Of a stretch of 64,000 nt of DNA, positions 1 through 3,450 are shown piece by piece. The stretch comes from a candidate division WWE3 bacterium (GTDB lineage: Bacteria; Patescibacteriota; 4484-211; GCA-002791395): assembly GCA_013335095.1 (NCBI GenBank), contig JAAXWF010000001.1:445984-509983 (forward strand). The letters are read 5' to 3'. The notes under the pieces are model-generated. The model saw only the letters and a list, made by a program, of their open reading frames with translations. It was not told where the DNA came from and searched no databases. The position numbers and the translations under genes were made by a program. Position 1 is the stretch's first letter. Each line of letters begins with the position of its first letter.

Positions 1-316
1 CGGTTCTAAATCAGCGGGGTGGGGGGCTTCGGCCTTCTCACCCCATCTTTAATACTATTTCACTAATTTACTAAAAGCATTTGTTCCGATAGCGCATATG
101 ATGGGGATTTTCTCGATCGGCATTGGTTTCGAGTAATATAGTTGCTCGGTGTTCCTTTGCTACTTCTTATAGCGCTTTCGTATGAACATGTTCTCGATAT
201 TTGAATAGTTATTGTCTGCATTGCGTTTTGGCGACCGTGTCAAGTTGTTGTTGTAGCGAAATTGTTATAGGTACTATGATTTGGCTATTTATAGCATGTG
301 AATATGTCTTATAGTA

Positions 317-344
317 TTGACTTTGCTTATTTGTAATGTATACT
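317..344 (+). promoter_or_regulatory. sigma70-like promoter (TTGACT-16-TATACT) for unit 1 (small His-rich membrane protein mRNA)
   Basis: TTGACT at 317-322, TATACT at 339-344, 16-nt spacer. Paralogous in sequence to the promoter at 1171-1198. Confidence 0.5.
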
Positions 345-482
345 TGGAAGTACAAAAAGCGCTTCGGGCGCTCCTGGCTTTGCCAGGTTTGGAGACCCTC
401 CGGGGTCACTTTGGTTGCTCCTTTTAGGGGCAAAGGTGACGCGCACCTATCTAAGCGCGAACTCTTGAGGAGGAGCACAGTC

Positions 483-827
483 ATGGCTCGTCATCGGAAC
501 TCGCATCGCGGCTATCGCCGCAGCCACAAGTTCGAGTCGGTTGTCCTGGTCGGGCTCTTTGGGCTCTTGGCCCTGGGTGGTCTGCTGTATGCTGCGGCCA
601 TCTTTTGGGTCCAGCTGCTCATCGGTTTCGGCATCCTGGCAAGCATAGCCGCTGCCTCTTATGGCGGCTTTCTGTTTGCTCAGAGCCGGACCTCGTCCGA
701 GACGGCCCGTCGGCCTGTCGTCGAGGCTGCCCCGGTGCAGCCTCAGGTGGTGATTCATCACCACCACTACCCCCGCAAGGGGGATCGGGGCGGCCAGTCG
801 CGCCCCAACCGCACCCCGCAGCGGTAG
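483..827 (+). CDS. small high-GC membrane protein, two predicted TM helices, His-rich C-terminus (HHHH), Arg-rich N-terminus
   Basis: GGAGGAGG RBS 7 nt upstream of ATG 483. Hydrophobic stretches LVGLFGLLALGGLLYAAAIFW and LLIGFGILASIAAASYGGFLF. About 65% GC, unlike neighbours. The longer ORF from 336 starts inside the promoter and is rejected. Confidence 0.5.
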   Translation: MARHRNSHRGYRRSHKFESVVLVGLFGLLALGGLLYAAAIFWVQLLIGFGILASIAAASYGGFLFAQSRTSSETARRPVVEAAPVQPQVVIHHHHYPRKGDRGGQSRPNRTPQR

Positions 828-849
828 TTGCGGATCGAAGAGGTGGTGG

Positions 850-1140
850 CCTAAAAACCACCACCTCTGTCCTTAGGCCTATGCCTTGTTTTTTAGATCG
901 TGTGTGCTGGGTTTTAACTTTGCGCACACACCTCTTGGTCATGTAATTAAATTATTAATACATGACTTTATATCGTTAGCCTTCGGGCTTATATAAAAAC
1001 TCCCATCCTGGGGAGCTTTATATGTATTTGTTTGTTGTTGAAGTACTGCAGAACTTCATCAATAAATAGATACGCGATATTAACTAGGCAAAGCCAACCA
1101 ACAAGCCGGTTCTCCGAAAGGGGGCCGGCTTTCTTTTTTT
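850..1140 (+). ncRNA. structured RNA module A1 (3' element of unit 1), ending in a GNRA-tetraloop terminator
   Basis: Hairpins gtgtgtgc...gcacacac, gtcatgta...tacatgac, gcc-UUCG-ggc, ctccc...gggag and tgaagt...acttca, then terminator hairpin gccgg..GAAA..ccggc plus T-run. The same five hairpins recur with compensatory changes at 2080-2370. Confidence 0.55.
1104..1140 (+). terminator. Rho-independent terminator (GC stem, GAAA loop, T9)
   Basis: agccggttctccGAAAgggggccggct followed by ttcttttttt. Confidence 0.7.
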
Positions 1141-1170
1141 ACTTATTATCCAAAAAATAACCCCATAGCA

Positions 1171-1198
1171 TTGACTTGGCTTAACCATTGTGTATAAT
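1171..1198 (+). promoter_or_regulatory. sigma70-like promoter (TTGACT-16-TATAAT) for unit 2
   Basis: TTGACT at 1171-1176, tgTATAAT at 1191-1198. Confidence 0.6.
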
Positions 1199-1518
1199 CA
1201 TAGGCATAACCAAATTCACTTGCTCTCTTTGAGAGCGGGACCCGCCCGTCTGGGGCATATGGGTGGTCGTGTTTCACGGCCGAGGGGTATGCACCTTCCT
1301 AATGCATATATGGAGCGGCACTTTTGCCGCATGAATTTGGACCGCCTGTATAAGGCGTTGGGAGTTTATCTCCCCAATATTGTTGGCTATGGCGCACGGT
1401 TTGTACCCGTGTGCCTCGTTAGATGTATGTCTGCATGACGTTCCCTTCGGGGAATGTTGTGCAGCATACGTCTAACACCGCACCTTCATCAGGGTGCGTT
1501 ATGCCAGCAATATTGAAC

Positions 1519-1708
1519 CCGGATCTTTGATCCGGGAGCTACCTCCTCGGTAGCACCCCTGGTCTGATGAACCAGGGTCGAGTAGCAGTGGTACAAACAC
1601 TGAACTACTCATTATGAGGCCTCCTCTTGCACACGCAAGCGGGGGGGTAGCGATTTTAACGCTACCAGAGCCGTCGATCTTTTGATCACGGCTAACAGAG
1701 GGACCTAG
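1519..1708 (+). repeat. internal RNA module X1 (paralog of X2)
   Basis: Hairpin series ccggaTCTTTGAtccgg, cctggtCTGATGAaccagg, cagtgGTACAAAcactg, cttgcACACgcaag, gtagcgATTTTAAcgctac, gccgt..acggc and agaggg..ccccctct, in the same order as X2. Confidence 0.55.
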
Positions 1709-1889
1709 AACCCCCTCTCCACGAGATTATAAGGCGAGTGATGCAGTCATAACTGCATCACTGCTGGAAGTTTGTTTTGTAAAATTGAGTCCTTTGGGAC
1801 TTGGTTTTGCAGAGCAGCTTTCAGCACCCACACGTGACATTGACGTGTGGTTTGAGCCTTGTTCGTGGAACCGTGCCGAAAGGTGCGGA

Positions 1890-2067
1890 TCGCTGTCTCC
1901 TTGACAGCGACTCTGGTGTAATGAACCAGAGGGAGGTGGAAGTGTTTATGAACACTTACCATTTCACATAAGGCATCCTCTCGCGTCGGCGAGCGGATGG
2001 GTGGTGCAGTTTATGCACTACCAGGGCAGCATTCGTGCTGTTAACAGAGGGAATTAGAACCCCCTCT
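1890..2067 (+). repeat. internal RNA module X2 (paralog of X1)
   Basis: cgctgtcTCCTTGAcagcg, ctctggtGTAATGAaccagag, agtgttTATGaacact, ctcgcGTCGgcgag, gtgcaGTTTATgcac, cagcaUUCGtgctg and agaggg..ccccctct. Stems differ from X1 by paired (compensatory) substitutions while loops are conserved. Confidence 0.55.
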
Positions 2068-2079
2068 TGGCGTTGGGAA

Positions 2080-2370
2080 TACCGGGTCACAAAAACCCGG
2101 TTAGAAGGTAGTGTGTGCTGGGTTTTTCTTGCGCACACACATCTTAAAGTCGTGCAATCTAAGAAAAACAAATAATTAGCACGACTTTCATATTGTTGGC
2201 CGTATGGCCATTGTATTACCCCATCCCTGGGGTGATGCATAAAGTTGTATGTGAACACGGAGCTTCTGCAGAGCTTCATTCACATGCGCTTTACAATATG
2301 CTAATTGGGGACCTAAAATCCCAACGACCTGGGCCGGCACTCCGAAAGGGGGCCGGCCCTTTCTTTTTTT
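2080..2370 (+). ncRNA. structured RNA module A2 (paralog of A1) ending in a terminator
   Basis: gtgtgtgc..gcacacac, agtcgtgc..gcacgact, ggcc-GUAU-ggcc, acccc..ggggt, ggagct..agcttc and gggccggc..GAAA..gccggccc plus T-run. Confidence 0.55.
2331..2370 (+). terminator. Rho-independent terminator
   Basis: gggccggcactccGAAAgggggccggccc followed by tttcttttttt. Confidence 0.7.
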
Positions 2371-2388
2371 ATATACAGTCGGGAAAAA

Positions 2389-3450
2389 TTACGTGATTTG
2401 AACTTTACTGAGAAGGGTTAATTCTTCAAGCGCTTTCCCACAACCTCGTACTACTGTGGTTAAAGGATCTTCATCGATATGCACTGGCATTTTAGTTTCT
2501 AAAGAAATCCTCTGGTCGAGTCTTTTTAGGAGCGCTCCACCTCCGCTAATAATAATCCCGTTCTGGTATAAATCGGAGATAATCTCGGGTGGCGTTTCTT
2601 CAATTGTCTCTTTAATGTTATCAACGATCACACGTAATGGTCGTTTCAATGCTTCGGCTAATTCGTCCTCGTTCACCACGACTTCTTTTGGAAGGCCTGT
2701 TTTAAGATCTCGTCCGCGCATTGCCGCTGTCGCTTGTTTATTCGGGTCAGGGGCGGGGAGTGCCGCTCCAATTGCAATCTTTATTGCCTCAGCTGTTTTT
2801 TCTCCAATTAGTAAGTTGTATTTTGATTTTGCCCAATTTATTACTTCATTATCGAGTTCGTCACCAGCCACCCGGATCGATCGACTCGTAACGATGCCTC
2901 CCAAACTGATAACCGCCATCTCTGATGTTCCTCCGCCAATATCAACGACCATGCTTCCGGTTGGGTCTTCGACGGGAAGATTGGCACCAATAGCCGCTGC
3001 CATCGGTTCTTCGATTAAATATACTTTTCGTGCTCCTCCGCGTATTGCCGCATCAATAACCGCTTTTCGTTCAACTTCTGTGACTCCTGAAGGGATTCCA
3101 ATTGCCAGTCTAGGTTTAGGTATTTTTAAGTTCAGACCGCGGGATCTATGGACTCTTCGTATAAAATATTTGAGCATTGCTTCGGCCATATCAAAATCCG
3201 AAATTACTCCATTGCGTAGTGGGCGAATGGCAACGATATTCGCGGGGGTTTTTCCGATCATTTTTTTAGCATTTGATCCAACGGCCAATACTTCACGGGT
3301 TCGTTTATTTACCGCAACCGTCGATGGTTCACGAATCGTAATTCCTTTACCAAGTACATATACCAGTGTGTTTGCGGTTCCAAGATCAATGGCTATATCA
3401 TGTGCAAAATAGCGCCAAATTTTGTCGGAGAAGCTGTCGAGACTATACAT
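2389..3450 (-). CDS. mreB: rod shape-determining actin homolog MreB
   Basis: 353 aa with IDLGTANT phosphate-1 motif, DIGGGTSE, and the actin fold throughout. Confidence 0.95.
   Translation of the reverse strand: MYSLDSFSDKIWRYFAHDIAIDLGTANTLVYVLGKGITIREPSTVAVNKRTREVLAVGSNAKKMIGKTPANIVAIRPLRNGVISDFDMAEAMLKYFIRRVHRSRGLNLKIPKPRLAIGIPSGVTEVERKAVIDAAIRGGARKVYLIEEPMAAAIGANLPVEDPTGSMVVDIGGGTSEMAVISLGGIVTSRSIRVAGDELDNEVINWAKSKYNLLIGEKTAEAIKIAIGAALPAPDPNKQATAAMRGRDLKTGLPKEVVVNEDELAEALKRPLRVIVDNIKETIEETPPEIISDLYQNGIIISGGGALLKRLDQRISLETKMPVHIDEDPLTTVVRGCGKALEELTLLSKVQIT

Follow-up and report, generated by a model that had tools for sequence, protein, structure and literature searches.

The window examined here is the whole 64,000-nt stretch taken from contig JAAXWF010000001.1 of a candidate division WWE3 bacterium, a member of the Candidate Phyla Radiation (CPR). 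Its first 2400 nt carry two consecutive transcription units on the + strand, unit 1 (317-1140) and unit 2 (1171-2370), preceded by the end of a third one, unit 0. With a probability of about 0.6, unit 2 is a free-standing gene of an ordered non-coding RNA (ncRNA) of ~1,165 nt and a duplicate of a unit-1-type unit, an architectural RNA being the preferred interpretation of its product. The original prediction, made from the letters of the sequence, had taken both units for almost entirely structured RNA and suggested a large undescribed ncRNA. This description holds for unit 2, which is non-coding, structured, devoid of an Rfam match and marked by compensatory changes, and fails for unit 1, which is an mRNA with an open reading frame (ORF) of low structure (z-score of -3.6) and an orthologue (P0046) in a related genome. 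The tandem domains of unit 2 and the third unit upstream had been missed.

From its 5' end, unit 2 consists of a leader (L), two tandem domains (D-I and D-II), a trailer (T) and a terminator. No ORF of at least 10 aa with a Shine–Dalgarno (SD) sequence at a distance of 4-12 nt was found in it, in agreement with the prediction that it lacked an ORF linked to a ribosome-binding site. The GC content of unit 2 was flat over the codon positions (0.50/0.54/0.52 and permutations) and every frame contained 7-16 stop codons; a coding or pseudogene reading was rejected on these grounds. The + strand of 1205-2370 folded with a minimum free energy (MFE) of -611 kcal/mol, the - strand with one of -500 kcal/mol. 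In the unit 2 fold, 72.6% of the bases were paired, with 43 G-U pairs, and the stems had 59% GC in comparison with 28% at unpaired positions. The energy gap between the strands, the G-U pairs and the GC content of the stems therefore indicate a structure formed at the RNA and not the DNA level and read from the + strand.

A scan of the whole 64 kb in 120-nt segments revealed 13 consecutive segments (601-2280) with z ≤ -3 on the + strand; elsewhere in the window, only isolated segments, mostly terminators, reached this value. The density of structure thus exceeds chance and is unique in the 64 kb. Compared with dinucleotide shuffles, the sub-domains had z values from -8.4 to -12.6 (D-I, -11.7; D-II, -12.6; both trailers within this range), and other GC-rich island sequences only from -1.3 to -3.6. 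Four of the 25 + strand CUUCGG sites of the window lie in this region (27, 362, 981 and 1445), so the UUCG loops named in the original prediction are present, though the hairpin at 16-44 belongs to unit 0. The surrounding genome, presented there as AT-rich, is only moderately so (~40% GC). Unit 2 is a discrete, non-coding element that is strand-specifically and exceptionally structured. It is probably transcribed as a ~1.17-kb RNA (~1205-2370), which would act through its fold.

The two D domains are diverged tandem copies of ~345 nt, each with 12 helices: a four-way junction first and then eight hairpins in the same order. A covariance model was built from the 5' half of D-I alone (146 nt, 57 pairs) and the window was searched with filters off. 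The 5' half of D-II was found at full length (1718-1872) with 36.9 bits and E ~2e-8, the best unrelated match in the window scored 15 bits, and other hairpin-rich parts of units 1 and 2 reached at most ~10 bits. All 57 pairs were canonical in D-II: both partners had changed in 34 of them, a single partner in 4 and neither in 19. Identity was 37% in paired and 59% in unpaired columns. When the 3' partner was shifted by 1-3 columns, pairing fell to ~38%. In the 3' halves, aligned with MAFFT on sequence only, 52 of the 52 pairs in 10 helices were canonical in both copies, 12 with double and 10 with single changes, in comparison with 37-50% pairing and 0-2 double changes in the slid controls. In total, 109 of the 109 pairs compared between D-I and D-II were kept and 46 were changed on both sides. 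Together with those of the leaders described below, the compensatory substitutions come from two to three sequences, mostly paralogues of one genome.

TRF and blastn missed the D-I/D-II repeat because the copies are too diverged in sequence. A scan of 1.4 Mb of other loci with the D-I model R1 and default filters returned the self-match alone, which is a weak control because D-II is also lost under default filters. Twelve collinear helices of matching length would be hard to explain without selection. The two diverged copies with their 46 compensatory pairs also offer a well-defined target for cryo-EM and structure probing.

Further evidence came from the comparison of unit 2 with unit 1. Unit 2 runs from a sigma-70 promoter to an intrinsic terminator on the same strand, as expected of an independent transcription unit. 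The sigma-70-like promoters of unit 1 (317-344; TTGACT-16-TATACT, 10/12 matches to the consensus) and unit 2 (1171-1198; TTGACT-16-TATAAT, 11/12 matches) were the top two such sites within 1-2600. They are paralogous, with the 19-nt ATAGYATTGACTTKGCTTA present at 311 and 1165 and nowhere else in the 64 kb. Together with this block, the unit 1 promoter comprises positions 311-344 (ATAGTATTGACTTTGCTTA as the upstream/-35 block, a 16-nt spacer and TATACT) and the unit 2 promoter positions 1165-1198 (ATAGCATTGACTTGGCTTA, a 16-nt spacer and TATAAT), both on the + strand and with putative transcription start sites at ~351 and ~1205, respectively. The -35 TTGACTT and the -10 TATAMT were invariant across unit 1, unit 2 and the unit 1 of a related genome described below.

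The terminators of both units have the form GCCGGnnCUCC-GAAA-GGGGGCCGGC followed by a U-run. The intrinsic terminator of unit 1 (1103-1140, + strand) has a 12-bp stem, a GAAA loop and a U-run; that of unit 2 (2331-2370, + strand), also with a GAAA loop and a U-run, is convergent with the end of mreB. The 3' blocks of the units (868-1140 and 2066-2370, ~250-300 nt) are paralogous with ~75% column identity. The two near-canonical paralogous promoters and the ~280-nt 3' blocks ending in GNRA-loop terminators, both claimed in the original prediction, were thus confirmed.

The leaders of unit 1 (351-482) and unit 2 align hairpin by hairpin; their UUU loops are shared, whereas the stems differ. In an alignment of these two leaders with that of unit 1 in the relative, double changes were seen in 10 of the 21 predicted pairs. 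Upstream of the SD, a purine tract of the leader pairs with the 5' part of the loop of the next hairpin (434-459 in unit 1, 1282-1307 in unit 2 and ~766-793 in contig L113 of the relative), and the paired segments covary over the three leaders (AGGUG/CACCU, GAGGG/CCUUC and AAGGG/CCCUU). As far as can be judged from sequence, the element is compatible with an H-type pseudoknot, an alternative fold or possibly a translational switch. Its SD-like purine tract stands beside a CCU-rich hairpin loop resembling the 3' end of 16S rRNA.

Both trailers have the same nested-junction fold (z of -8.4 in unit 1 and -11.0 in unit 2). Hairpin T1 is invariant between them, and compensatory changes, read directly from the sequences, were found in T2 (GUCAUGUA/UACAUGAC vs GUCGUGC/GCACGAC) and in the inner junction helix (AUAUCGU/GCGAUAU vs AUAUUGU/ACAAUAU). 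T3 (AGCC/GGCU vs GGCC/GGCC) and the base of the terminator were likewise compensated. Moreover, the hairpin behind the ORF of unit 1 (839-868) aligns with a hairpin of D-II, hairpin d, which indicates a common plan of promoter, leader, cargo, hairpin d, trailer and terminator. In unit 1, an ORF forms the cargo, and in unit 2 an RNA domain that was duplicated along with hairpin d. The SD and the start codon of unit 1 are matched in the alignment by a vestigial GGAG (1311) and AUG (1331) of unit 2, with a hairpin inserted between them; their position suggests a coding unit as the ancestor of unit 2. The non-coding anatomy, the strand-specific stability and the retention of helices in the D copies, leaders and trailers therefore argue for selection on RNA structure.

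The anatomy of unit 2 was derived from the parsed MFE structure and from folds of sub-regions, all on the + strand. L (1205-1373; z of -5.1) is closed by a 9-bp helix (1210-1218 with 1331-1339), inside which there are hairpins at 1219-1239 (UUU), 1244-1256 and 1265-1281 (UUU), the pseudoknot-type element at 1282-1307 and a hairpin at 1315-1330. Two further hairpins follow (1343-1357 and 1360-1374). D-I (1374-1717) opens with the four-way junction, closed by a 13-bp helix (1375-1387 with 1503-1515) and containing hairpins at 1391-1415, 1418-1476 (27 bp, UUCG) and 1479-1498. Eight further hairpins occupy 1518-1717, the last being hairpin d, AGAGGG[ACCUAGAACC]CCCUCU. D-II (1718-2067) repeats the same 12 helices in the same order, with its long hairpin (29 bp, UUUG) at 1763-1825 and hairpin d at 2046-2067. 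In both copies, the junction holds three hairpins: one of 9-11 bp, one of 27-29 bp with a UUCG or UUUG loop and one of 8 bp. T (2068-2330) comprises a closing helix (2069-2078 with ~2320-2330), a hairpin at 2081-2101, T1 (2105-2145), T2 (2146-2188) and an inner junction with T3 (2197-2210), T4 (2212-2239) and T5 (2241-2292).

Hairpin d, AGAGGG[AnnUAGAACC]CCCUCU, is the sole element nearly identical in sequence in both D copies (92%). The GAACC motif occurs six times in unit 2 (1515, 1569, 1708, 1868, 1923 and 2057; 0.9 expected), at three homologous loop-to-stem boundaries per D copy, including the invariant UAGAACC of hairpin d. GAACC may be bound by a protein or may take part in a tertiary contact.

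Unit 1 (317-1140) is a genuine mRNA, whose structured 5' leader and 3' trailer are common to unit 2. Its single small ORF (483-827, + strand), expected from the original prediction, is preceded by an SD (GAGGAGGAG, 467-476). It encodes a protein of 114 aa with a basic N-terminus, two predicted transmembrane helices and an Arg/His/Pro-rich tail containing VVIHHHHYPR, and the product is identical to the NCBI protein HGA91_02390, encoded on a 536-kb contig. The GC content at the three codon positions was 0.70/0.50/0.76 vs a GC3 of ~0.31-0.34 in host genes. The ORF is only mildly structured (z of -3.6; -2.4 in the relative) and was not matched by model R1, so its interpretation as a D-like structured domain was rejected. 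The codons of the VV(I/V)HHHHYPR stretch form a near-perfect RNA hairpin (GGUGGUGAUUCAUCACCACC) at 746-765 of the window and at ~1094-1113 of L113. Since the hairpin-encoded stretch is kept in the protein of the relative, it may be constrained both as a peptide and as RNA.

The unit 1 leader (L', 351-482, + strand) contains hairpins at 358-372 (UUCG), 373-387 (UUU), 394-407 and 415-433 (UUU), and its purine tract (434-438) can pair with the loop of the hairpin at 440-459, a candidate H-type pseudoknot. The post-ORF hairpin (AGAGGUGGUGG...CCACCACCUCU; 839-868, + strand) is the positional homologue of hairpin d. In the trailer (T', 869-1102, + strand), an outer closing helix surrounds T1 (900-929), T2 (937-967) and an inner three-way junction (973-979 with ~1076-1082), from which T3 (978-989, UUCG), T4 (991-1023) and T5 (1024-1073) emerge.

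A word-index search detected the unit 1 protein in this genome only. An exhaustive HMMER search revealed one homologue, P0046 (132 aa, 35% identity, E 3e-7), which shares with it the MARH N-terminus and VV(I/V)HHHHYPR. P0046 is encoded on L113, a 1.3-kb contig (SRR21121627) of a related WWE3 genome with 58% identical fmt and 66% identical MreC. The order on L113 is the end of unit 0 with its terminator, an AT-rich spacer, the TTGACTT promoter, the leader, the ORF, the post-ORF hairpin and the first arm of T1. Another contig of the relative, L111, carries fmt beside a unit 0 homologue (3-830; 28% identity), which is GC-rich and has an RGG/poly-Arg C-terminal tail. Units 0 and 1 have therefore kept their place by inheritance, while their sequences change far more rapidly than those of housekeeping genes (28% and 35% identity vs 58-66% for fmt and MreC). 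L113 ends (1305) inside the trailer hairpin T1 and L111 ends (1) inside unit 0. A break at T1 is expected if the relative has two trailers, i.e., a unit 2, and low coverage explains it equally well.

In distant relatives (40-45% MreC identity), fmt lies directly beside mreB and the island is absent; orphan genes near the locus of such relatives (L095) were not GC-rich and were unrelated. A GTDB scan anchored on MreB returned 80 loci from unrelated phyla (51-62% identity) because MreB is too conserved. An exact-protein look-up for strain variants of the locus retrieved one Logan contig only.

Large ornate bacterial RNAs (OLE, GOLLD, ROOL, raiA and HEARO) are few, and each of them opened new biology. 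To our knowledge, none is known from the CPR, and a literature search for large ncRNAs in WWE3 or CPR bacteria found none. None of the 4227 families of Rfam 15 matched the 64 kb at the gathering score, and with E up to 10 only noise was obtained in 1-2500. The best sub-threshold families (Phe_leader, CRISPR-DR57, GA-cis and RsmY) were far below the cut-off and mostly on the wrong strand; RsmY was rejected with 17.8 bits on the wrong strand vs a cut-off of 57. As the original prediction had anticipated, tmRNA, RNase P, SRP/4.5S and 6S had no match in 1-2500 at E up to 10, nor had rRNA, and tmRNA was also excluded by ARAGORN, which detected no tRNA or tmRNA gene in the 64 kb. OLE (RF01071) gave no covariance match in the whole window at the gathering score or in 1-2500 at E up to 10, and ROOL (RF03087), GOLLD (RF01998), HEARO (RF02033) and raiA (RF03072) were likewise without a match at E up to 10.

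A neighbourhood of the ROOL/GOLLD type was not found either, as there was no tRNA in the 64 kb, no PHROG match among the neighbouring ORFs and no similarity to phage DNA. The blastn search of 300-2380 against phages and plasmids gave no match. In viral contigs, GTGTGTGCTGGGTTTT had eight matches, all lacking the closing arm and hence due to chance, and the terminator 18-mer and the hairpin-d motif had none. Among 14 matches of TGTGCTGGGTTTT-N(2-14)-GCGCACA in JGI metagenome contigs, none was similar downstream. Such exact-motif scans are too strict because T1 differs in sequence between this species and the relative.

A type I toxin–antitoxin system was rejected, with units 1 and 2 on the same strand and a 114-aa protein larger than typical type I toxins. 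Antisense pairing of unit 2 with the start region of unit 1 was also rejected (best -36.8 kcal/mol vs a shuffled mean of -39.4). A type III toxin–antitoxin system or a CRISPR array found no support from TRF, which detected only an 8-nt AT-rich repeat at 53-74, or from PADLOC, which gave no match. A repeat search returned the paralogous blocks only. The unit 0 and unit 1 proteins had no significant Pfam, NCBI-type, PHROG or PADLOC match.

Several known RNA systems resemble unit 2 in part. OLE is a large ornate multi-junction ncRNA of several hundred nt, encoded beside genes of small polytopic membrane proteins; it is localised to the membrane through a membrane-protein partner (PMC3413148). The likeness of unit 2 to OLE/OapA is one of position only, as its neighbours are not OapA homologues. 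OLE has a Firmicute host whereas the host of unit 2 is a CPR (WWE3) bacterium, and unit 2 is about twice as long as OLE, with a tandem domain duplication and with a leader and trailer common to the neighbouring mRNA. We know of neither a tandem domain duplication nor an mRNA-shared leader and trailer in OLE. ROOL and GOLLD are likewise very large ornate bacterial RNAs with many helices and junctions, located in accessory genome regions; unit 2 differs from them in lacking a covariance match, a phage/tRNA neighbourhood and phage or viral homologues.

With its multi-hairpin leader and long structured 3' region, the unit 1 mRNA recalls stabiliser modules of untranslated regions (UTRs) and UTR-derived small RNAs. 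The modules of units 1 and 2 are unusually large (~130 nt, and ~250 nt with nested junctions) and are reused on a non-coding cargo, and no described UTR-module family matches the leader and trailer. As regards CsrB, RsmY, RsmZ and 6S, unit 2 is similarly non-coding and rich in stem-loops, with its own promoter and terminator. Unlike the CsrB-type sponges, it has no repeated GGA-type loop motif, and its helices are arranged within long-range closing helices and not as beads on a string.

Unit 2 probably arose by the duplication of a unit-1-type transcription unit, in which the position of the ORF would have been taken by a ~345-nt RNA domain that was then tandemly duplicated, with the promoter, leader, post-ORF hairpin, trailer and terminator kept. 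Its RNA would be an architectural or scaffold RNA rather than a base-pairing regulator and may share its transcriptional and post-transcriptional control with the fast-evolving small membrane proteins of the adjacent units 0 and 1. The common leader and trailer would then be shared modules of expression, stability or factor binding. Together with the Arg-rich membrane proteins, the RNA might form a membrane-associated RNA–protein assembly, as OLE does with OapA. This OLE-like role of a scaffold working with membrane proteins is proposed tentatively and with low confidence. It is possible, though on balance doubtful, that with unit 2 a hitherto undescribed class of giant structured RNAs begins in CPR/Patescibacteria, born from an mRNA and acting as an architectural partner of its neighbours; the assembly in question may be a membrane-tethered ribonucleoprotein (RNP) or an RNA-only one.

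Some observations weigh against this interpretation. The membrane-RNP mechanism is a pure inference from the neighbourhood and the Arg-rich tails, and the positive-inside rule could explain these tails equally well. Neither the unit 0 nor the unit 1 protein has a Pfam, PHROG or PADLOC match or any similarity to OapA. The near-perfect hairpins of 27-29 bp resemble RNase III substrates, so that the working molecule might be cut from the primary transcript. In the relative, whose contigs stop before unit 2, no orthologue of this unit was recovered. The covariation of the D domains rests on two paralogues of one genome and hence carries no significance of the R-scape type, and the alignment of the 5' halves was fitted to the structure of the model. 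Unit 2 is so far a singleton; with its unusual mRNA-twin architecture, it makes a strong candidate for a large structured RNA of a new kind rather than a demonstrated RNA class.

Among other explanations of unit 2, a decoy RNA survives best, although it is unlikely. Such an RNA would titrate a repressor, RNase or ribosome that binds the shared leader and trailer and would thereby tune the unit 1 protein, with the D domains mainly providing stability or additional sites of binding. What the mRNA and the ncRNA have in common is the leader and the trailer, the SD-like tract of the leader pairs with the CCU-rich loop resembling the 16S 3' end, and a UCCUC or UCCUU loop is found at the homologous hairpin 5 of each D copy. 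However, a decoy would not require anything as elaborate as the D domains with their four-way junctions and 12 conserved helices. Loop motifs repeated in the manner of CsrB/RsmY are absent, since among short motifs GAACC alone recurs, with three sites per copy, and no candidate binding protein was identified.

It is rather improbable that the 1.17 kb RNA serves as a precursor cut into smaller RNAs, e.g., by RNase III at the 27-29-bp hairpins. The candidate product would be a ~250-nt trailer RNA, freed from the unit 1 mRNA as well. The two near-perfect long duplexes (1418-1476 and 1763-1825) and the trailer, a self-contained closed domain with an invariant T1 at the 3' ends of both units, fit such processing. 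On the other hand, structural conservation extends to the whole D domain and not to the trailer alone, and large RNAs also often have long hairpins as architectural arms.

An RNA-only assembly of the ROOL/GOLLD type, possibly on a mobile or phage-derived island and with D-I/D-II as a covalent pseudo-dimer, is a still poorer candidate. The size, the ornate multi-junction fold and the lack of a coding signal agree with it, as does the location in a GC-rich accessory island missing from distant relatives, in which fmt and mreB are adjacent. Homo-oligomers are reported for ROOL, GOLLD and OLE (PMC12286853). Against it stand the lack of an Rfam ROOL/GOLLD match, of phage proteins or tRNAs nearby and of any match in phage or viral collections, as well as the apparently vertical inheritance of units 0 and 1 in the relative.

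Of all these rivals, the one least compatible with the data is a dead paralogue, in which unit 2 is a decayed copy and its hairpins a by-product of GC-richness or of palindrome-generating mutation. The vestigial GGAG and AUG aligned with the signals of unit 1 would suit a decayed copy, and so would the fact that no unit 2 orthologue was seen elsewhere. It is nevertheless very improbable in view of z values from -11 to -12.6 against dinucleotide shuffles, where other GC-rich islands reach only -1.3 to -3.6, and of an intact promoter and terminator. The retention of 109/109 pairs in stems with 37% identity would also be unexpected without selection. It is hardly credible that unit 2 is the mRNA of a very small protein, e.g., of the 36-codon frame that opens with AUG 1331 and closes at 1436-1438, and that the structured remainder is a huge 3' UTR. 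Although this AUG is homologous to the unit 1 start and a GGAG lies 16 nt upstream with a compact hairpin (1315-1330) between them, this SD spacing is outside 4-12 nt, the frame crosses the junction helices of D-I (dG of -89.6 kcal/mol), codon periodicity is absent and the peptide is unlike the unit 1 protein.

CPR genomes are small (~0.5-1 Mb), and the maintenance of a 1.2 kb non-coding gene in such a genome implies an important role. An mRNA and an ncRNA with a common promoter, leader and trailer offer a clean case for the birth of an RNA gene from a coding unit. If unit 2 does stand at the beginning of a new RNA class and acts as an architectural partner of its neighbours, this RNA born from an mRNA may sit at the symbiont–host interface.

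The region 1-2400 is located between fmt (- strand, upstream of the window) and mreB (2389-3450, - strand), so that three successive + strand units (0, 1 and 2) are flanked by two - strand housekeeping genes. The cumulative GC skew climbs across the whole window, which identifies the + strand as the leading one. The sequence upstream was taken from L001, a 27-kb Logan contig (SRR11449211) that overlaps the window start and extends beyond it. Unit 0, lying upstream of unit 1 and divergent from fmt on this contig, is GC-rich and starts from a separate promoter; a short hairpin leader, an SD and a terminator are also present. Its ORF (L001 13442-14032, - strand of L001) ends at window position 9 and encodes a polytopic membrane protein of 196 aa, the tail of which is rich in Arg. 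The terminator (16-52 on the + strand of the window, - strand of L001) consists of the UUCG-loop hairpin (16-44) and a U-rich tail and is the same in the relative. Two tRNA-like sequences were noticed by eye just upstream of the window (L001 ~15560-15740).

GC-rich islands (52-65% GC) are present throughout the genome, with a GC3 of 0.48-0.76 vs 0.31-0.34 in housekeeping genes. In the window, they were found at 6960-7680, 15800-18580, 20850-21900, 28780-29960, 34590-35070 (- strand), 45820-47100, 47590-48230 and 50015-50800. Their proteins are orphans with no Pfam, PHROG or PADLOC match. The ORFs of the islands, including 483-827, showed clear coding periodicity, and every island comes with a consensus promoter of its own, a leader rich in hairpins, a strong SD and a terminator. 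The islands sit between conserved housekeeping genes; one of them separates PBP2 and dprA, which adjoin each other in a relative (L093).

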